Positions 32,194 through 63,655 of a stretch of 64,000 bases of DNA are shown piece by piece. The translations under genes and the position numbers were made by a program. The stretch's first letter is position 1, and the number at the start of each line of letters is the position of its first letter. The notes under the pieces are model-generated. The model did no database searches and was not told where the DNA came from. It worked only from the letters and a program-made list of their open reading frames with translations. Source of the DNA: Candidatus Saccharimonadales bacterium (GTDB lineage: Bacteria > Patescibacteriota > Saccharimonadia > Saccharimonadales > OMJO01); assembly GCA_038213615.1 (NCBI GenBank), contig JBBQSV010000001.1:4032-68031 (forward strand). The letters run 5' to 3'.

Positions 32194-33435
32194 TTATTTC
32201 AGTGATGCTTCGGCTGCAAGTAGCTGTGAATCATGAACAGCTTTAATGTCCGCGTCGCTGATCTTTACTACTTTATCGGGGGTTATGCCCTCTTTATCGA
32301 TATTCTTGCCACCCGGGGTATACCAGCGAGCGATAGTAACTTTTAGTACGCTGCCGTCATTTAGATCCTCTACCTGCTGTACGCTGCCTTTGCCAAATGA
32401 TTTTTCGCCCATCAGAGTGGCGACTTTATTATCCCTAAGAGCTCCAGCGGTAATCTCGCTGGCACTGGCGCTACCGCCATCTATCAGTACAACTGTTGGT
32501 ATGCCCTGCAGTGTATCGGTACCATCTGATTGATAGGTGCGAATAACCTGGCCGCCGCGACGTTCGGTCAGAACAGTTTTATCACTAGGCAGCCACAAGC
32601 TAGATACTTTTACGGCAGAATCTAGTAAGCCGCCGGGGTCGCCGCGCAAGTCCAAAATTATGCCGTGTACATGGGCGGCCTTGAACTTGTTGGCCGCAGC
32701 CGTGGACAGATCGGCCGTGTCCTCGCCAAAGCGTGATATCTGCAAATAACCGATGTTACCAGGTAAGATTTTAGATTTAACACTTGGTATAGAGATCGTT
32801 GCCCTGGTAATAGTAAAGCTAAGCTCTTTGTTGTTACGAACGACCTTTAGGGTCACCTTGCTACCGGCTGGGCCACGAATTTGGGTAACCACTTGATCAA
32901 CACCCAGGTTGGTGGTTGACTTGCCATCAACTGATTCAATAATGTCTTTTGGCTTTAACCCCGCTTTTTGGGCTGGGAACCCATCTAACGGCGATATAAC
33001 TACGATGTTGTTGTCGCGCTTGCCTAGTTCGGCGCCAATGCCACTGAATGTACCACTTAGTTGATTGCTAAAGTCAGTAGCTGCTTTGCTGTTCATGTAC
33101 ACGGTGTACGGATCCCCAGCAGCAGTAGCCAGGCCCTGCTTTAGGCCGTCAAGCAACTGGTCGGCCGTCAGTTTACCATCATAATCACGACGCAAGGTGT
33201 CGTAAACCTTTTGCACCGAACTTAGATCTAGTTTGGAAGATAAACCAGCGTTTTCGGACTTGTGAAATACAGAGTCACGCCCCAAACTAATCTTGCCCTG
33301 GCCTACTCCTACTCCAAGCAAGAATATAGCCGCCGCTAGAGCAACCGTAACGGCGCCACGCAGTAGTCTGGCTAGCAAACTAATACTAGGTTTTGGTTTT
33401 AACTCCATGCTCTTTTTACCTACTGTCCCTCGCAT
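32194..33435 (-). CDS. ctpA: S41 carboxyl-terminal processing protease with PDZ domain
   Basis: N-terminal TM, a PDZ domain (GFPAQKAGLKPKDII), DLRGDPGGLL and SASASEI motifs. Confidence 0.9.
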   Translation of the reverse strand: MRGTVGKKSMELKPKPSISLLARLLRGAVTVALAAAIFLLGVGVGQGKISLGRDSVFHKSENAGLSSKLDLSSVQKVYDTLRRDYDGKLTADQLLDGLKQGLATAAGDPYTVYMNSKAATDFSNQLSGTFSGIGAELGKRDNNIVVISPLDGFPAQKAGLKPKDIIESVDGKSTTNLGVDQVVTQIRGPAGSKVTLKVVRNNKELSFTITRATISIPSVKSKILPGNIGYLQISRFGEDTADLSTAAANKFKAAHVHGIILDLRGDPGGLLDSAVKVSSLWLPSDKTVLTERRGGQVIRTYQSDGTDTLQGIPTVVLIDGGSASASEITAGALRDNKVATLMGEKSFGKGSVQQVEDLNDGSVLKVTIARWYTPGGKNIDKEGITPDKVVKISDADIKAVHDSQLLAAEASLK

Positions 33436-33485: not shown

Positions 33486-34643
33486 CTAACGAAAGTGCAC
33501 AAACAACACGCCAGAACTTTTGACATCCATAGTGCTATACATACCGTTAACTCGCCAGTTCATTTGGCTGACATGAACCCAGCCACCACTCTGTACAGAT
33601 TCGACATACATGGCATGTCCGCTGCCACCAGACCAGGCTACTACAGCTACTGCCCCGACCTCTGGACTATGGTCAACTCGGTAATGCCCGCCTAGGCTAG
33701 ATGGCCACTGTTCGGCATTGCCTCGCCCGGCCAAATAACCAGACAAATCTATGCCCCTAGCAGCGCGATCGGCAGCATAGTGAACACACTCCCGGGCCAA
33801 ATGAAGGCCCCAAGTATCATCAACCCATGAATCCCAGGTAGCTCCACAATAGTGATAACCACCACCACACCAGCTATCACCACTCAAGTTCCTAAACTCA
33901 AAAGCGCCAACCGACCCAAAACTGGCCCCACCGCCGCCGGCGGCGGCCAGGGCAGCCTGTTGAGCATTCCGCAAGTTAACGATCTTGCCATAGTTGGCCT
34001 GTATCTGTGCATTTATTTTGGCCTGTTGTGATTCGTTCAGGGACAACAAATGGTCTTTCTCGGCCTTTTGGCTAGCCAGACCATCTTGAGCATCTTTCTT
34101 TTGGCCCAATAATTTCTGAACCCGATCTTTTTGATCTTTTAGCTGATTACGAAGTGTGGTGATGGTCTGAACAGTGGTACTAATTTTGGCCTGTACAGCA
34201 TTGCGGTATTCTTGTTTATCTAAAAAGTCGCTGAGGTTATTACTAGACGCCAACATCTCTATGGTGCTGATGTCGCCCTCTAGATACATGGTCTTGATAC
34301 TCTGCCCCAAAGTTTCTTTTTGGTAAGCTAGTTCGGCTTCTTTTTCTTTGATCTGCTTATTAATATCGGCTATCTTGGCAGTGTAGAGATTTATCTGCTT
34401 TTGTAGAGAGTTTATCTTGCCAGCTAGTTGATCAATAGTGGTCTGCAAACTATTGGCAACACCGGCTAGTTTGTCATTTTGACCCTGTTTTTGATTATTC
34501 TGCTGCTACAGCTTGTTGATTTGGGAATCAAACGAATCGGCTCGGGCGAACGGCACCACCAAAAAACTGGCACAACTGACCGATGCCATTAGCAATAAAG
34601 CGAACTTCTTGGTAATTGTTAGTTTTGACTGTTTTTGTTTCAT
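33486..34643 (-). pseudogene. PcsB-like secreted coiled-coil + CHAP peptidoglycan hydrolase interrupted by one in-frame TAG
   Basis: A signal peptide (MKQKQSKLTITKKFALLLMASVSCASFLVVPFARA/D) and the coiled-coil/CHAP part (RECVHY Cys, GHAMYVE His) share one frame. They are separated only by TAG at 34506-34508. Confidence 0.75.
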
Positions 34644-34768
34644 AGTCTTGCCCGTTTTGGCTAGCTTAGTAAACATTAGGATTATACCACGCCATTCCGT
34701 CTTTCTCAAGTCCCTCACCCTTGGGGACGACAGAAAGAACTTAGTTATTTTGCTTGGGGTCTAGAGCT

Positions 34769-35713
34769 TTATTTTGAAGTCTTAAATTTGAGGTATCGCC
34801 GCGTGGCTATTATGGACGATGCGGCTCCTATTAGTATACCAACCCCCAACTGCGAGGTCAAAATCAGCCAAAAATGCTTGGCTATGTAGTTGTTAGCGTA
34901 CTGAATGTCTAATAGCCCCAGGCTGCTGGCATTGAAGGTTGATGACGAAACCAGAAACAAAGTATTACACAGCGTGACCGATAAAATAGCCGACACTACA
35001 CCGTACAACACTGTCTCTACTACAAATGGGCCCCGAATATACCAACTGCTTGCCCCCAGTAAACGCATAATAGTTAGCTCGTCACGCCTATTGAATATGG
35101 CCATACGGATGGTGTTAAAGATAATCAACATCGACACCAGAGCGAATACGATAACACCCACAAATCCGGCTTGTCGAAAGAACCTAGTGGCCTTGGCTAT
35201 TTTGTCGATAGCCTCTTTACGGTCACCAGAGTACGACGTAGCGTCGGACTGCTCAGACTTGATTTCTGGCTTTTCTAGATAATCTTTTATCTCTTGGATC
35301 CTATTGGGGTCTTTGGGTTTGACCTGCAAACTGGCTGGCAAAGGATTGGACGTTTCTGATATGGCCACAAGCAGATTTAGGTTATCTTTGTTCTGTTCTT
35401 TATATATCTGCAAGGCTTGGTCTTTGGATACATAGTTAACAGTGTCGACATTTGAGATAGCCTGCAAATCACTGATTAACTTCTTTCGCTGGGGCTCGGT
35501 AACTGTATCTTTCAGATAAACTGATACATCAATTTTGTCGGTGATTTGCTTAACAGTGTGGGTAAACGTGGCGTTGGTAATCAGCGAAAACAGCACTATC
35601 GACAAAGTAATAACCATCACAGCTATGGCCGCAATAGCCAAAGTAGCATTACGAATAAAGTTCTGCGCCCCTGTTTTGATAATGCGCCACAGCGTTATAA
35701 GCCTGTGGCTCAT
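34769..35713 (-). CDS. ftsX: cell division ABC transporter permease-like protein FtsX
   Basis: 4-TM FtsX topology with a large first extracytoplasmic loop. Overlaps ftsE by 4 nt. Confidence 0.85.
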   Translation of the reverse strand: MSHRLITLWRIIKTGAQNFIRNATLAIAAIAVMVITLSIVLFSLITNATFTHTVKQITDKIDVSVYLKDTVTEPQRKKLISDLQAISNVDTVNYVSKDQALQIYKEQNKDNLNLLVAISETSNPLPASLQVKPKDPNRIQEIKDYLEKPEIKSEQSDATSYSGDRKEAIDKIAKATRFFRQAGFVGVIVFALVSMLIIFNTIRMAIFNRRDELTIMRLLGASSWYIRGPFVVETVLYGVVSAILSVTLCNTLFLVSSSTFNASSLGLLDIQYANNYIAKHFWLILTSQLGVGILIGAASSIIATRRYLKFKTSK

Positions 35714-36408
35714 GATGCTTTACCCGGCTTTACGTTATAGCGTGCGTTGGCCCGATCGCTGACAATTTTGCCATCAGCAATGGTAATAACCCGACGGCGC
35801 AATTTATTAACTATGTCTTGGTTATGGGTAGTCAGAATCACGGTGGTGCCGTAGCGATTTATTTTTTCTAGCACCTTGATGACATCCCAGGCGTGTTTGG
35901 GGTCTAGGTTGCCGGTAGGTTCGTCGGCTATCAGAATCTTGGGCTGGCGCACAATGGCTCTGGCAATGGCCACCCGTTGGCGTTCACCACCAGATAGTTC
36001 TAGTGGCATACGCTTTTCTTTGCCCTTCAGTCCCACAATGTCCAGCACCCTAGGCACGGTGTGTTTGATCTCTTTGTTGCCGTAGCCTACGATCTCTAGC
36101 GCAAAGGCTACGTTTTCAAAGACGTTACGGTTGGCTAGCAGTTTAAAGTCTTGGAACACTACCCCTATCTTGCGGCGCAGCAAGGGAATATCACGGTCTT
36201 TTAGTTTGTCGTAATCTAGTCCACCAACAACAATCTTACCAGCGGTTTGACGCTCTTCGCGGGTGAGTAACTTTAGTAGCGTGGATTTACCCGCCCCACT
36301 CTTGCCAATTACAATCACGAACTCTTTGGGTTCGACGTGCAAAGTAATGCGGTCTAGGGCAGTACTATTTTGGTTATAGGTTTTGGTAACTCGGTCCAAC
36401 AAAATCAT
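35710..36408 (-). CDS. ftsE: cell division ATP-binding protein FtsE
   Basis: Walker A (GKSGAGKST), signature (LSGGERQR) and Walker B (ILIADEP). Confidence 0.9.
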   Translation of the reverse strand: MILLDRVTKTYNQNSTALDRITLHVEPKEFVIVIGKSGAGKSTLLKLLTREERQTAGKIVVGGLDYDKLKDRDIPLLRRKIGVVFQDFKLLANRNVFENVAFALEIVGYGNKEIKHTVPRVLDIVGLKGKEKRMPLELSGGERQRVAIARAIVRQPKILIADEPTGNLDPKHAWDVIKVLEKINRYGTTVILTTHNQDIVNKLRRRVITIADGKIVSDRANARYNVKPGKAS

Positions 36409-36448
36409 GTAGAACCATTATAGCAAACTGTTTAAGCTGCAAGAGTTT

Positions 36449-37933
36449 CTAGCTTATAGCACCATAGCCTGGCCTTAAGCGGCTATAGACTACCCTGTTC
36501 TTTCGCGTGTTGGGGTCACATACTATGCGACGCATTTCAACTGTCGCCCGACTATCGGGTCGGTGCCACATATTGTTTACATCTTCAGCAATATCATTAT
36601 CAGACCAACCCTGGGCTTTAAGTAGTAATAGGTGGTCGCCAAGCGTTGGACCGGCAACACCCATAGTATCTCGCCATTTTTGAGCCCAGGACTCTAAGTA
36701 AATCATGGCTTTTCGTAACCAAGTACCGTCCACGAGTGAACCTTTTGTGGCCTCTACCACCAAGGATGGATCAATACCATATAGAATCCTCAGGAAAGCT
36801 TGCGGCAAATCACCCAAATCTTGAGAGCCAAACTTCTCAAGCAGTTGATCGCCTTGCAAGCTTTGGTTGAGCTTGTCCGTAATCAGGTTTGCGATCTGTA
36901 TGGTGGCAGTGATTGGGATGCCAAGTTGTATATCGCCCTTTTCTCGAGTATGTCGTAGCTTATCATAGGCAGCCACTATTGTCTTAGCAACTTGATCATG
37001 TTCGGCAATTTTCACAATACTAAATAAAATGACTTCTGGCATGTGATCGACAACTTCTGATAGATCCCCAAGTCCAATAAAGCCTTCCGCCCTAAGGTCC
37101 CCCTCAATCTTTTCTAATCCAGCTTTTGTAGGTTGCGGTGGCGGATTATAATCCTCTATTAGCTGCTGGCTTGGCCTATTACCAAAGCCTTCATAACCTT
37201 CATGTGCAAGCAAGGCCCGTAGCCTTACACCTGTAAATACTTCTGCTGTGTCTAGTCGATCCTCCCGTGACCTTACTAGTCCCTCTGCGATGCCCCTACA
37301 AGTCACCTGTGCTTCATCAGGCGAACGTAATTTTCTTGCTTCAATCAACTGCGTGAAAACTGGCAATACTAGTTCGGCGGCCTGTTTGGGGTCTGCCTCA
37401 GCCGTCTCAGGATTCTCTACTAAACGTACGCCGGCACTTACCAGTGCACGCGTCAAGCCACGGGGCGCTGGCTCACGCCAAACAGAGTTAACCTCTACAA
37501 AATCATAGACTTCAGTTAGCTTTGATAGCTGGGCAGTATCTTCAGCCAGTGTAGTTAGTTTTAAGAGCGTCCTTACGTAAAGTCTATGCTCATCCCGTTG
37601 TCGCAAACGAACTAAAGCTTCTTTCTTAAAGGCTTCAAAAGTAGTGTAGTTTCCCACCACGACACCCAGACCCTGAGCCTCTTTACTGGCATTTATGACA
37701 TCTCGCTTATAGGCTTCGCTGGCATAGTTTTTTTTGTCAGGATCATGAAAATCATTCCAGGCTCGTCCAAACCGGAATGAAACCGAGTGCTCATACCTAC
37801 CAACTATAGTATTGGGAAGCGGCTGATCTAATAAATATTGAAGTATCTCGCCCGTTTCGCCCGCCAATACAGAATGCAAATCTACTGCTTCGTTATTAGG
37901 GCCTAGGACTATGTCGCCATTATCTACGGTCAT
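36449..37933 (-). CDS. hypothetical 494-aa cytoplasmic protein
   Basis: Long unopposed ORF directly behind a perfect consensus promoter. No motif recognised. Confidence 0.7.
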   Translation of the reverse strand: MTVDNGDIVLGPNNEAVDLHSVLAGETGEILQYLLDQPLPNTIVGRYEHSVSFRFGRAWNDFHDPDKKNYASEAYKRDVINASKEAQGLGVVVGNYTTFEAFKKEALVRLRQRDEHRLYVRTLLKLTTLAEDTAQLSKLTEVYDFVEVNSVWREPAPRGLTRALVSAGVRLVENPETAEADPKQAAELVLPVFTQLIEARKLRSPDEAQVTCRGIAEGLVRSREDRLDTAEVFTGVRLRALLAHEGYEGFGNRPSQQLIEDYNPPPQPTKAGLEKIEGDLRAEGFIGLGDLSEVVDHMPEVILFSIVKIAEHDQVAKTIVAAYDKLRHTREKGDIQLGIPITATIQIANLITDKLNQSLQGDQLLEKFGSQDLGDLPQAFLRILYGIDPSLVVEATKGSLVDGTWLRKAMIYLESWAQKWRDTMGVAGPTLGDHLLLLKAQGWSDNDIAEDVNNMWHRPDSRATVEMRRIVCDPNTRKNRVVYSRLRPGYGAIS

Positions 37934-37943
37934 GATTATTTAT

Positions 37944-37972
37944 ATTATACCTGTTTTTTACACATATGTCAA
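37944..37972 (-). promoter_or_regulatory. perfect sigma70-type consensus promoter TTGACA-17-TATAAT
   Basis: The minus strand reads TTGACAtatgtgtaaaaaacaggTATAAT. The -10 box ends 10 nt before ATG 37933, with no Shine-Dalgarno. Confidence 0.6.
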
Positions 37973-38004
37973 AAACGTGACCATGTCGTTAACTCGTACT
38001 CAAG

Positions 38005-38181
38005 CTAACTTTCTATAAACTTATCCCGATTACTGTCCAGTACAACGTCTGGGTCACTAGGCAGCTGGGCCAAAATATATTCCAGTATCTGATCACTATC
38101 ACCTTGTAAAACCCCCTGTAAATCCACAGGGTACTTAACCGCCTCGCCCGATTCCGCAGTTTGATCAAAATTATCAGTCAT
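38005..38181 (-). CDS. 58-aa highly acidic small protein (below ORF-track cutoff)
   Basis: Hand translation: MTDNFDQTAESGEAVKYPVDLQGVLQGDSDQILEYILAQLPSDPDVVLDSNRDKFIES. A promoter -10 box lies 9 nt from the ATG. Confidence 0.4.
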   Translation of the reverse strand: MTDNFDQTAESGEAVKYPVDLQGVLQGDSDQILEYILAQLPSDPDVVLDSNRDKFIES

Positions 38182-38190
38182 GTAACAGAT

Positions 38191-38218
38191 ATTATATACT
38201 TTTTCACTAATACTTCAA
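38191..38218 (-). promoter_or_regulatory. candidate promoter TTGAAG-16-TATAAT
   Basis: The -10 box ends 9 nt before ATG 38181. Confidence 0.45.
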
Positions 38219-38399
38219 GCCAAGGACCCCTGTTTTGCCAGCCGACTGTGTGTTCCGGGTAAGTGTTGATGTGTGAACCTGCCCATATGAATTACCTTCG
38301 TCGATATCAAAATTTGCTGAACCATAAGCCAAACTATAGACATAAGCGTTATTTGCAAGTAAACTTAGGATCAATACTTAGAATCAATTAAGGTAAACA

Positions 38400-39527
38400 A
38401 TGGATATTAACAGCCCCAAACAACCAAGCCCGCCAAATCCGGTTTATGAGCACCCCGCTATGGTTGCTACTAGTCCCCTTGCGGCGCCAGCCGCCCCAGC
38501 GAACAACCAACCTGCCCAGGTATTTGGTACACCCGCACCTGCTCAGCATCAGGCCACTTCGGCCGGGCTGGTAGTTTTACAGTGGTTGACTTACGCCTTT
38601 TGGGGCTGGACGGTATTGGCTCTATCATTCCTAACCAGCACAGTTATTGGTAGCTTTATGAACAATAACGACCTGGGTTCTAGTATCGCACCCTACACCA
38701 TCGCCGCGGTTATAGTGTTGCTACCAATATCTGTAATCTGCGATGTCTTCTACTCTAAACATGAACCAGACAAAAAAACTGGTGCGGCTATGGTTGTCAT
38801 GGTTATCCACGCTGTCTTCTTTGCGTTTTTTGGCATTGGGTCACTAATAGCTGTAGCATTCTGCCTAGTTGGATTATTTACCGACAGCTCTCAGCACACC
38901 AGCACATTAGTGGCTCTTTACAGTGCGATGATCATTGCCGTATTCTATGCAGTCACTTTTTTGAGAACCCTACACCCGGCTAAGTTTAGTTGGATCAAGC
39001 GTGTTTACAGCATATTCATGGTTGTCTTTGTTGGTGTCATTGCCATTCTTGGTTTTGTGGGCCCAGTGGCAAAAGCCCACCAGACCAAAGATGACAAGCT
39101 AATAGAGTCTGGCCTGTCCTCTGTAACCACGGCCGTAACTAACTATGCCACCACCAACAGCAAGCTCCCCGACAATCTACAAACCTTGACCCTAGACGGT
39201 GACGCAAAGACGTTGGTTAACCGCAACCTGATACGCTATACCGCAAATACACCTCCAGTCACACAATCAACCAATAGCCTCCAGAGCGCCCTACAGGCCA
39301 AAACCAACCCGGGGGTCAGCCTAAACAGTAGTTCATACCTTAATCAGTCGCAGATACCAACTGTTTACTACTACACATTTTGTGTAACCTATAAAAAGAA
39401 GTCGTCGTTCTACAACACGACACCAAACTATAGCAATTCTCTGCAAGGCGACGGCTACACCACAAGTCCAGACAGCTATTCACACCCAGCCGGTGAAGTC
39501 TGCTACAAACTGAAAACTGGCTATTAG
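38400..39527 (+). CDS. polytopic membrane protein with Pro/Ala-rich N-tail and pilin-like C-terminal ectodomain
   Basis: About 5 TM helices. After the last TM comes KDDKLIESGLSSVTTAVTNYATTNSKLPDNLQTL, which resembles the start of a type IV pilin globular domain. Two C-terminal Cys are 44 residues apart. Confidence 0.65.
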   Translation: MDINSPKQPSPPNPVYEHPAMVATSPLAAPAAPANNQPAQVFGTPAPAQHQATSAGLVVLQWLTYAFWGWTVLALSFLTSTVIGSFMNNNDLGSSIAPYTIAAVIVLLPISVICDVFYSKHEPDKKTGAAMVVMVIHAVFFAFFGIGSLIAVAFCLVGLFTDSSQHTSTLVALYSAMIIAVFYAVTFLRTLHPAKFSWIKRVYSIFMVVFVGVIAILGFVGPVAKAHQTKDDKLIESGLSSVTTAVTNYATTNSKLPDNLQTLTLDGDAKTLVNRNLIRYTANTPPVTQSTNSLQSALQAKTNPGVSLNSSSYLNQSQIPTVYYYTFCVTYKKKSSFYNTTPNYSNSLQGDGYTTSPDSYSHPAGEVCYKLKTGY

Positions 39528-39530
39528 TAA

Positions 39531-40616
39531 CTACCCTCCCAAGGAATGTTCCAGATAGGCATCGATCAGATCGTCTAGATTGCCATCTAGTACACCGTCT
39601 ATATCACTAGTTTCGTAGCGGGTACGCAAATCTTTGACCTGTTTGTAGGGGTGCAATACGTAGCTGCGGATTTGGTTACCCCAAGCTGCTTGTTCGTTGG
39701 GGCCTTTTAGGTCACGCACGTTTTGCTGGTGCTGCTCTTCTGACAGCTGGGCTAGTTTGGAACGCAAGATTGTCATGGCTGTTTCTTTGTTTTGCAGCTG
39801 CGACCTTTCGTTCTGAATAGAGACCACGATATTGGTTGGCAAGTGCGTGACACGCACTGCCGAGTCTGTGGTATTTACTGACTGGCCGCCTTTGCCGCCG
39901 CTCCTGAATACATCGATCTTTAAATCTTTGTCGTCGATTTCTACTTCGTTGGGCTGATCAATTTGCGGCAGAACTTCTACCTTGGCAAAGCTGGTTTGGC
40001 GCAAGTTATCAGAGTTAAACGGGCTGAGCCGTACTAACCGGTGCACACCGTGCTCGCTCTTTAGTTGGCCATATACAAACTTGCCACTTAGCTGCATGGA
40101 CACACTTTTGATGCCGGCTTCTTCGCCATCTGATTGGTCGATAGATTTGACTTCTACATCGTGTTTTTCAGCCCAGCGCACGTACATACGCAGTAGCATC
40201 TGGGCCCAATCTTGGGCATCGGTGCCACCGGCACCGGCGTAAATACTGAGTATGGCGTTATAGCTGTCGTGTGGGCCGGCAAACTTTAGCTCGCCCCGCA
40301 AATCATCAAAATCCTTTTGGGCCTGGGTTAATTGATTGGTTAGATCGTCAGCTAGGCTGGCATCGCCCAAACTAGCCATTTCTACAATGTCTTTAATTGC
40401 CGCCTCTAATTTTTGCCAGGGCTTTACTCTAACCTCTAGACTAGATTTTTGCTTCATCACTTCCTGGGCCTGCAAATTATCAGACCAAAAATCAGCCTGA
40501 CTAGACTTGGCCTCTAACTCGATTAGCTGGGTAGCCAAATCGTCGATCTTTAGCTTGCCCATGGCAGCTTGTACGCTGGCCAGCAGTTCGGTAGCAGACT
40601 TATTTACATCTTGCAT
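39531..40616 (-). CDS. prfB: peptide chain release factor 2 (single uninterrupted ORF)
   Basis: SPF tripeptide (RLSPFNS) and GGQ (SGGKGGQSVNTTDSAVR). No +1 frameshift site. Confidence 0.95.
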   Translation of the reverse strand: MQDVNKSATELLASVQAAMGKLKIDDLATQLIELEAKSSQADFWSDNLQAQEVMKQKSSLEVRVKPWQKLEAAIKDIVEMASLGDASLADDLTNQLTQAQKDFDDLRGELKFAGPHDSYNAILSIYAGAGGTDAQDWAQMLLRMYVRWAEKHDVEVKSIDQSDGEEAGIKSVSMQLSGKFVYGQLKSEHGVHRLVRLSPFNSDNLRQTSFAKVEVLPQIDQPNEVEIDDKDLKIDVFRSGGKGGQSVNTTDSAVRVTHLPTNIVVSIQNERSQLQNKETAMTILRSKLAQLSEEQHQQNVRDLKGPNEQAAWGNQIRSYVLHPYKQVKDLRTRYETSDIDGVLDGNLDDLIDAYLEHSLGG

Positions 40617-62596: not shown

Positions 62597-63655
62597 ATGG
62601 AAGCCAAAGAACAATCTCTGCGTCAAGAACTAGCCGACCTGCAGACCCGCTTGCAGGATCCATCTATTTTTGCGTCCAAAGATTACCCCAAACTGGCCCG
62701 CCGCCAGAGTCAATTAGAAGAGTTAATTCGGCTATTTGATGAATCTGCCACCCTACGTAGCGCACATGACCAGGCCCAAGAACTGGCTAGTGGTGCCGAT
62801 CCAGAAATGGCTACCCTAGCAGCTGGCGAACTAGAAGAGCTAGATCAAAAGATTCAGGTCAACAGCGACGCCCTAAACGAGGCCCTGACCCCCAAAGACC
62901 CCAATAACGAGCGTGACGTAATTGTAGAGATCCGGGCAGCGGCTGGCGGCGATGAGTCTAGCTTGTTTGGCGGCGAACTGTACCGGATGTATGCCCGCTG
63001 GGCCGAAAACCACAACTACAAATTAGAACTCATCAGTGAAAGCCCCAGCGAAGCCGGCGGATTCAAGGAAATAATCTTTGCCGTCCGCGGCGAAAATGCC
63101 TACAAAAACCTCAAGTTCGAGGCCGGTGTTCACCGCGTGCAACGTGTGCCAGTCACCGAAAGCCAAGGCCGCATCCACACCAGCACAGCTACTGTAGCCA
63201 TCATGCCCGAGGCCGAAGAAACCGATATAGAAATTAACCCCGCAGATTTGAGGATCGATGTATTTAGATCTGGTGGCCACGGTGGTCAGAGCGTCAACAC
63301 CACCGATTCAGCCGTGCGCATCACCCACTTGCCCTCTGGCCTAGTGGTCGCCAACCAGGATGAAAAATCGCAGATCAAAAACAAGGCCAAAGCGCTAAGT
63401 GTGTTGCGCTCCCGTTTGTTGCAACTAAAGATAGATCAAGAACAAAAAGATTTATCCGATGCTCGTCTAAAACTAATCGGGTCTGGCGACCGCAGCGAAA
63501 AGATCCGGACTTATAACTACCCCCAGGACCGCATTACAGATCACCGCATTGGCTACAGCCGCTCCAATTTGCCCGGCGCACTGGATGGCCAAATAGATGA
63601 CATCATCGAAAAACTTCAGACTGCTGAACACGAACTTTTGAGTCATGAAGGTTAA
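62597..63655 (+). CDS. prfA: peptide chain release factor 1
   Basis: PxT tripeptide (PVT) and GGQ (SGGHGGQSVNTTDSAVR). ATG 62597 has an AAGGAA Shine-Dalgarno. ORF-track GTG 62564 lies inside the terminator stem. Confidence 0.95.
   Translation: MEAKEQSLRQELADLQTRLQDPSIFASKDYPKLARRQSQLEELIRLFDESATLRSAHDQAQELASGADPEMATLAAGELEELDQKIQVNSDALNEALTPKDPNNERDVIVEIRAAAGGDESSLFGGELYRMYARWAENHNYKLELISESPSEAGGFKEIIFAVRGENAYKNLKFEAGVHRVQRVPVTESQGRIHTSTATVAIMPEAEETDIEINPADLRIDVFRSGGHGGQSVNTTDSAVRITHLPSGLVVANQDEKSQIKNKAKALSVLRSRLLQLKIDQEQKDLSDARLKLIGSGDRSEKIRTYNYPQDRITDHRIGYSRSNLPGALDGQIDDIIEKLQTAEHELLSHEG

Follow-up and report, generated by a model that had tools for sequence, protein, structure and literature searches.

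The closest described systems to the gene considered here are peptidoglycan hydrolases coupled to FtsEX. PcsB of Streptococcus pneumoniae, represented by a full-length structure (PDB 4cgk), joins a signal peptide, a long coiled coil and, past a short Ala/Gly-rich linker, a C-terminal CHAP domain whose Cys and His are catalytic; it is associated with FtsEX and is essential in some species. CwlO of Bacillus subtilis, RipC of Mycobacterium tuberculosis and EnvC of Escherichia coli and Vibrio cholerae also carry a coiled-coil hairpin that binds the extracellular domain (ECD) of FtsX, with an NlpC/P60 catalytic head in CwlO and RipC and a dead LytM head in EnvC. We analyzed a gene of this kind, with a CHAP head, in a 64,000-nucleotide stretch of DNA from a Candidatus Saccharimonadales bacterium (assembly GCA_038213615.1, contig JBBQSV010000001.1; hereafter the window, within which all coordinates are given unless another contig is named). 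The product comprises a signal peptide, a ~200-residue coiled-coil hairpin and a C-terminal CHAP domain, and its frame is interrupted at codon 46 by an amber codon (TAG). The reading that we favor, at a probability of roughly 0.5, is that this TAG is a real and very young single-base nonsense allele (CAG to TAG) that acts as a null or strong hypomorph and not as a recoding device.

PcsB is the closest solved relative of this protein and its best structural match (E 4e-8). The two share ~16% identity, and TM-scores are low because the domain orientation differs. In the pneumococcus pcsB is not known to be encoded next to ftsEX, unlike the hydrolase gene here, which directly follows ftsX and in the assembled copy carries a premature amber codon. 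A parallel for the lesion itself is rpoS(Am) of E. coli K-12 lineages, a natural amber allele in which codon 33 of an otherwise intact gene has changed from CAG to TAG. The likeness would lie in a single CAG-to-TAG change near the 5' end of an intact gene, giving a null or leaky allele within a lineage; the difference is that rpoS is dispensable and its loss can be advantageous, whereas the hydrolase is probably essential. Within the Saccharibacteria the nearest counterpart is SEML1_0236 of Candidatus Southlakia epibionticum ML1, flagged as a core member of a Patescibacteria-enriched family (PMC10633639). There RF2 is followed by one hypothetical gene, then by FtsE, FtsX, the CHAP gene (1155 bp), an S41 peptidase and a response regulator (PMC10633639, Table S1), an order matching that here. 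SEML1_0236 is intact and its length compares with 1158 bp here; its orthology is assigned by position, length and annotation only.

A coiled-coil CHAP hydrolase frame with one internal stop

Translation of the minus strand from 34718 to 33486 gives a frame with exactly one internal stop, in the context CAA ATC AAC AAG CTG TAG CAG CAG AAT (QINKL*QQN, extending to QINKL*QQNNQKQ). A preliminary description of this DNA had placed two open reading frames (ORFs), 34506-34718 and 33486-34448, in one frame with the TAG at 34506-34508 as the only interruption; both statements hold, the two ORFs being halves of a single minus-strand frame. The start of the upstream ORF at GTG 34718 had probably been set too far upstream. 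Orthologues begin with M(L)KQK and a near-consensus promoter at 34709-34681 falls inside the GTG ORF, and for these two reasons ATG 34643 (MKQKQSKL...) is the likely start. From this ATG to the terminal stop at 33486-33488 there are 385 codons. The locus should be annotated as one gene at 33486-34643 (a pseudogene or possible sequencing error), not as a 320-amino-acid (aa) leaderless CHAP protein.

The identification of the gene as an FtsEX-linked, PcsB/CwlO/RipC-like coiled-coil CHAP hydrolase, proposed in the preliminary description, is supported by Pfam, a profile search of PDB, a fold search and synteny. The C-terminal third matches Pfam CHAP (E 3e-12, 47 bits against a cut-off of 26), and the Cys in RECVHY (Cys286) and the His in GHAMYVE (His343), picked out earlier as catalytic, occupy invariant columns in an alignment of 32 sequences; the Pfam CC_PcsB match is weak (E 0.003) and below its cut-off. 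A profile built from 32 homologues retrieved PcsB 4cgk over nearly the whole length (E 6e-8), the EnvC coiled coil from an FtsEX-EnvC complex (8hd0; E 8e-9) and the isolated CHAP domains 2k3a and 2lrj (E 1e-14 to 1e-16). The AlphaFold model, with a mean predicted local distance difference test score of 71, has a signal-peptide helix, two long helices with a short tip between them, a Gly/Ala linker and a globular alpha/beta head, and the top Foldseek matches to it were PcsB, FtsEX-EnvC (8tzl), the RipA N-terminal domain (6ewy) and FtsEX-RipC (8idc). The protein thus has the signal peptide, ~200-residue antiparallel coiled coil, CHAP domain with Cys and His and ftsEX linkage of a PcsB-type hydrolase; the feature it lacks is the uninterrupted frame, and the assembled copy gives no secreted enzyme except via read-through.

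The Sec signal peptide with ARA/D cleavage described earlier is a prediction by sequence reading that agrees with the equivalent N-termini of 31 homologues. It has a K-rich n-region, a 19-residue hydrophobic h-region (FALLLMASVSCASFLVVPF) and ARA followed by D, and residues 9-27 form a helix in the model. The most conserved part of the hairpin is its tip, residues 119-144 (MYLEGDISTIEMLASSNNLSDFLDKQ, window 34212-34289), which falls at the break between the two long modeled helices and is 100% identical in the closest relative that we reached, while the flanking helices are ~50% identical. By analogy with the FtsEX partners above, this tip is the likely contact surface for the FtsX ECD, such that the hairpin would bind that domain through its tip and the CHAP head would be released upon hydrolysis of ATP by FtsE.

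Codon 46 in relatives and the reading of TAG in this genome

No internal stop was found in any full-length orthologue among 40 relatives, nor among the ~150 best orthologue matches listed from a set of 400 genomes of the order, in which 337 of the 400 have a hydrolase orthologue. One apparent second case, an orthologue (G024) scored with one TAA, was rejected: the gene is an intact 388-aa one, with its natural TAA stop inside the alignment. The closest relative is represented by a 3.5-kb Logan contig from run SRR27563698 (L043), which encodes an FtsX 86% identical to that in the window and the first 186 codons of the hydrolase; its codon aligned to the TAG is CAG, for Gln (...INAL-Q-QKN...). 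The position, of surface type and close to where the first helix begins, is variable, with Q, N, K, R, E or S in more distant orthologues, and the codons CAG, AAG and GAG found there are each one base from TAG. The CAG-versus-TAG comparison called for in the preliminary description therefore gives CAG in the closest relative and an internal stop in none of the orthologues examined, and the C-to-T change in a CAG codon that it had proposed is plausible, AAG and GAG occurring in the distant orthologues as well. The stop at codon 46 appears, from these alignments, to be a one-off event.

Searches for closer sequences returned little. In a set of 5.8 billion proteins there was no hydrolase from the same species or genus, the best non-self match being 54% identical. 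A 27-base pattern across the codon that left the T open (N) had no match in JGI metagenome or GTDB genome contigs (in which the window's own genome was masked), and a 151-aa N-terminal query meant to catch fragments on short contigs found nothing close. Exact-sequence look-ups of FtsX, a guessed partial FtsX, the S41 protease, the 320-aa ORF and the 45- and 56-aa stubs gave no match; that of FtsE matched a 1454-bp Logan contig (L021, SRR19962010_4522116). This contig is 100% identical to window 35511-36964 and ends 1 kb before the TAG, and on account of this identity the same strain has been independently assembled with the same sequence over that interval.

TAG is an ordinary stop in this organism. 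Of the 609 ORFs with 150 codons or more, TAA terminates 283, TAG 234 (38%) and TGA 92, and RF1 (window 62606-63634) and RF2 (window 39549-40550) are both intact. The open frame past natural stops is not longer for TAG (median 12 codons) than for TAA (11) or TGA (9.5). The suppressor tRNA(CUA) suggested earlier as something to look for was not found: at normal thresholds neither ARAGORN (31 tRNAs) nor the Rfam tRNA model (30) gave a tRNA(CUA) or tRNA-Pyl in this 88%-complete assembly, where absence is not absolute. The Rfam set equals the default ARAGORN set minus tRNA-Cys and plus one truncated, sub-threshold tRNA-Lys piece. Twelve "cta" anticodons from a relaxed ARAGORN run (-ps80) were dismissed as noise, since that run called 465 "tRNAs" in 724 kb. 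These results give no sign in the assembly of a dedicated decoding factor, such as a suppressor tRNA or pyrrolysine or selenocysteine machinery, or of a loss of RF1. As a separate observation, contig C6 (6907-6980, outside the window) carries the truncated tRNA-Lys(UUU)-like piece, which retains its acceptor, D and anticodon arms, has lost the T arm and sits ~110 nt upstream of a complete tRNA-Lys(UUU) gene; an integration at the tRNA may have left it as a scar.

Apart from the stop, the gene bears no mark of pseudogene decay: a single lesion is present, and we found no multiple lesions, lost conserved residues or accelerated rate. All invariant hydrolase residues are kept. Of 77 columns conserved to at least 90%, the read-through protein differs from the consensus at 3, a number inside the range of 0 to 5 seen in closer intact homologues, and its coiled-coil part scores a mean of 115 bits against 31 outgroup proteins (122 bits for the closest relative), with a branch no longer than that relative's. 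On these grounds we rejected a decaying pseudogene. The preliminary description had named a second intact paralog together with further decay as the signature of a plain pseudogene; there is neither a paralog of the same architecture nor further decay.

The genome is a metagenome-assembled genome (MAG) of 724 kb in 33 contigs, a population consensus. As a control for assembly quality, 416 ORFs from 381 kb of a genome of the same family (G006) were compared with it by tblastn. Of 204 long queries with a match, 176 were covered over at least 80% by one uninterrupted high-scoring segment pair, and the remainder were contig-end truncations or domain-level matches; there were no frameshifts, and the hydrolase was the only real gene with an interior stop. 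A codon-usage scan for same-frame ORF pairs returned 97 in this genome, all of them adjacent genes or antisense shadow ORFs on inspection, and so revealed no other broken gene.

Explanations for the amber codon

Under the nonsense-allele reading, the gene encodes the single FtsEX-coupled PcsB-type peptidoglycan hydrolase of the organism, whose coiled-coil hairpin, by analogy with PcsB, CwlO, RipC and EnvC, would dock on the FtsX ECD and whose CHAP cysteine peptidase head would be switched on in division by the FtsE ATPase cycle. Its Gln codon 46 would have changed very recently from CAG to TAG, as a real allele of the sampled population. Because the organism reads TAG as a stop, nearly all ribosomes would release a 45-residue signal-peptide stub. 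Full-length enzyme would arise only through rare near-cognate decoding of UAG by tRNA-Gln(CUG), whose gene is present in the genome; such decoding would restore the ancestral Gln, so that the leakage product would be the wild-type protein at a small fraction of its normal level. Drift in a bottlenecked population of epibionts might maintain the allele, or other hydrolases or a low level of near-cognate decoding might buffer it. Passive low-level leakage of this kind is plausible by analogy: the amber codon is followed by C at +4, the first base of two successive CAG codons, misreading of UAG by tRNA-Gln occurs in E. coli and read-through in yeast is higher with C at +4 (PMC5289835), and premature stops in a Gln-codon-rich context are also read through more often in yeast (PMC13192750). 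Of the options offered in the preliminary description, the first, a recent inactivating mutation or an assembly or population variant, fits all the evidence. The identity of the gene, the stop, the ordinary use of TAG, the lack of the stop in relatives and the lack of additional decay are shown directly; that we are dealing with a genuine allele and not with an error of the consensus is our inference, as is the small amount of leakage.

Several points weigh against the nonsense-allele reading. SEML1_0236 was called essential at all three time points of transposon sequencing (Tn-seq), where the input DNA had 40 insertions in it, against 0, 0 and 1 once the cells had grown, and FtsE and FtsX of S. 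epibionticum were essential as well (PMC10633639, Table S1). With its positional orthologue essential, a true null at high frequency here would be surprising. No second protein of the same architecture is present in the assembly, at its 88% completeness. Outside the window, contig C4 (4081-5067) encodes the one other CHAP protein, which combines an N-terminal membrane anchor and two LysM-like repeats with a CHAP domain and might in part stand in for the hydrolase. Data on read-through context were obtained in E. coli and yeast rather than in Patescibacteria, and the contig and protein look-ups yielded no second assembly covering the TAG.

A stronger form of the leakage idea, in which the amber allele is both real and fixed and cells survive because tRNA-Gln(CUG) reads UAG-C in a Gln-codon-rich context behind a very strong promoter, we consider unlikely. 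Quite possible, by contrast, is that the T at 34508 (the first base of the minus-strand TAG) is a sequencing or consensus error, or a defective minority or dead-cell allele, and that the living population has CAG. The essentiality of the orthologue in S. epibionticum, the single copy of the gene here and the selected, intact look of its remainder all fit such an artefact or unrepresentative variant, as do the one-base distance from the CAG of the closest relative and the nature of the genome as a 33-contig, 88%-complete population consensus. Against it stand the absence of any other broken gene among ~200 conserved orthologues in the assembly and the exact match to an independent Logan contig over 1454 bp nearby. 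Consensus substitution errors are, moreover, rare in short-read assemblies, should this MAG be one.

The remaining explanations are far weaker. Read-through could have been selected or programmed to throttle a dangerous secreted hydrolase, a possibility that the preliminary description had also entertained, with help from the weak context UAG-C, CAG CAG and a downstream RNA hairpin; we hold this to be very unlikely. In its favor, the +4 base is C, and C and A are somewhat under-used at +4 of natural TAG stops in this genome (0.21 and 0.20, against 0.30 for each of G and T), the promoter is very strong, and tRNA-Gln would restore the ancestral residue. The 86 nt past the stop (window 34420-34505, minus strand) fold into an irregular hairpin of -21.5 kcal/mol, with a z score of -2.6 against dinucleotide shuffles; yet three windows were tried, 2% of random coding windows reach this z and 35% this energy, and the hairpin is probably due to chance. 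A search for an RNA element near the amber codon gave no Rfam match in the region. None of the orthologues examined has the stop, nothing like it occurs in another gene of the genome, RF1 is present and a suppressor tRNA was not found, which leaves the programmed form of read-through unsupported. Were the stop regulatory, one would expect its conservation within the genus at least, for which there is no congener to compare.

That the two halves now work as separate genes, with the 320-aa ORF from TTG 34448 acting without a signal peptide and the 45-aa stub having a role of its own, is more improbable still, even though both ORFs are open and gene callers report the 320-aa ORF as a protein. The split arrangement occurs in no relative, and the orthologues can still be aligned over the 20 codons from TAG to TTG. 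We could recognize no purine-rich Shine-Dalgarno sequence upstream of the TTG, nor is there an ATG or GTG between it and the stop. The product would be leaderless, as the preliminary description had said of any downstream re-initiation, yet the substrate and the ECD of its partner FtsX are extracellular; the domesticated split gene proposed there is thus contradicted. Reassignment of TAG to an amino acid, genome wide or in part, through an altered code or pyrrolysine, is refuted for practical purposes and has nothing in its favor beyond this one codon: TAG ends 234 of the 609 long ORFs, RF1 is intact, neither tRNA(CUA) nor tRNA-Pyl appears at normal thresholds, no excess of open frame follows TAG, and no other conserved gene tested contains an in-frame TAG. 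A-to-I or other editing of the UAG in mRNA was set aside on the sole ground that the motif targeted by TadA, UACG in a loop, is absent. The evidence thus speaks decisively against a changed code, a conserved recoding site and a domesticated split gene.

Gene neighborhood and implications

The features of the locus are collected in Table 1. The order of genes given in the preliminary description, with the hydrolase after ftsE-ftsX and before an S41 protease, is borne out by Pfam for all three neighbors and is conserved across relatives: ftsE-ftsX lies directly upstream of the hydrolase in all 19 relatives checked, and the S41 gene directly downstream in 17. In the two relatives without an adjacent S41 gene, the contig holds another hydrolase-like match nearby.

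Table 1. Positions of the hydrolase gene, its parts and its neighbors in the 64,000-nucleotide window
Feature	Positions	Strand	Basis
Whole hydrolase frame, 385 codons plus terminal TAG, one interruption	33486..34643	-	Translation; orthologues of 375-450 aa align end to end
In-frame amber codon 46	34506..34508	-	In first long helix, 10 codons past predicted cleavage site
Signal peptide, codons 1-35, predicted cleavage ARA/DS	34539..34643	-	Sequence reading; aligned with hydrophobic N-termini and xRA/D motif of 31 homologues
Coiled-coil hairpin, residues 36-234	33942..34538	-	AlphaFold (AF2) helices 33-123 and 137-234; EnvC and PcsB profile matches
Linker and CHAP domain, residues 240-385	33489..33926	-	Pfam CHAP; PDB CHAP matches; Cys286 at 33786-33788, His343 at 33615-33617
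First possible restart codon TTG, start of 320-aa ORF	34446..34448	-	No in-frame ATG/GTG between TAG and TTG
Putative sigma-70-type promoter, near-consensus, TTGAGA-17-TGgTATAAT	34681..34709	-	Consensus match, 11/12 plus extended -10 TG
ftsX, 314 aa, FtsX_ECD and permease domain	34769..35713	-	Pfam FtsX_ECD E 5e-22, FtsX E 7e-13; 4-nt overlap with ftsE
ftsE, ABC ATPase, 232 aa	35710..36408	-	Pfam ABC_tran E 1e-34; 78-92% identical at same position in 19 relatives
S41 C-terminal processing protease with PDZ domain	32194..33435	-	Pfam Peptidase_S41 E 1e-51 and PDZ; same position in 17/19 relatives

Several relatives carry a tandem pair of coiled-coil CHAP hydrolase genes after ftsX (G021:C3:25462-28435; G027:C3:29433-33124; G168:C11:451545-453810; G276:C51:1435-3794), and the partner gene has therefore been duplicated repeatedly in the order; this genome holds only one copy, the interrupted one. 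Across the relatives compared (L002-L020 and L043), identity to the window is 78-92% for FtsE, 47-86% for FtsX and 39-55% for the hydrolase, which, to judge from these values, evolves much faster than its partners. On the other side of ftsE, window 36449-39527 places ~3 kb between prfB and ftsE, containing a 494-aa orphan and other ORFs without a family, where the closest relative has a gap of 32 nt (L043 1261-1293) and S. epibionticum one small hypothetical gene. This comparison supports a reading of the ~3-kb block as a lineage-specific insertion.

No kind of gene lesion or consensus flaw is commoner than a lone nonsense codon in one MAG, and with the gene family, its FtsEX link and its essentiality in Saccharibacteria already on record, the finding itself matters little. 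If the TAG is an artefact, the gene is simply intact and functional. If the allele were fixed and the cells lived on leakage, the locus would be a natural case of an essential bacterial divisome gene run on stop-codon leakage and would offer a handle on termination fidelity in Patescibacteria. Should TAG prove to be the majority allele, the locus would provide a natural test of how far a saccharibacterium needs the hydrolase partner of FtsEX and of how leaky UAG is in this phylum.

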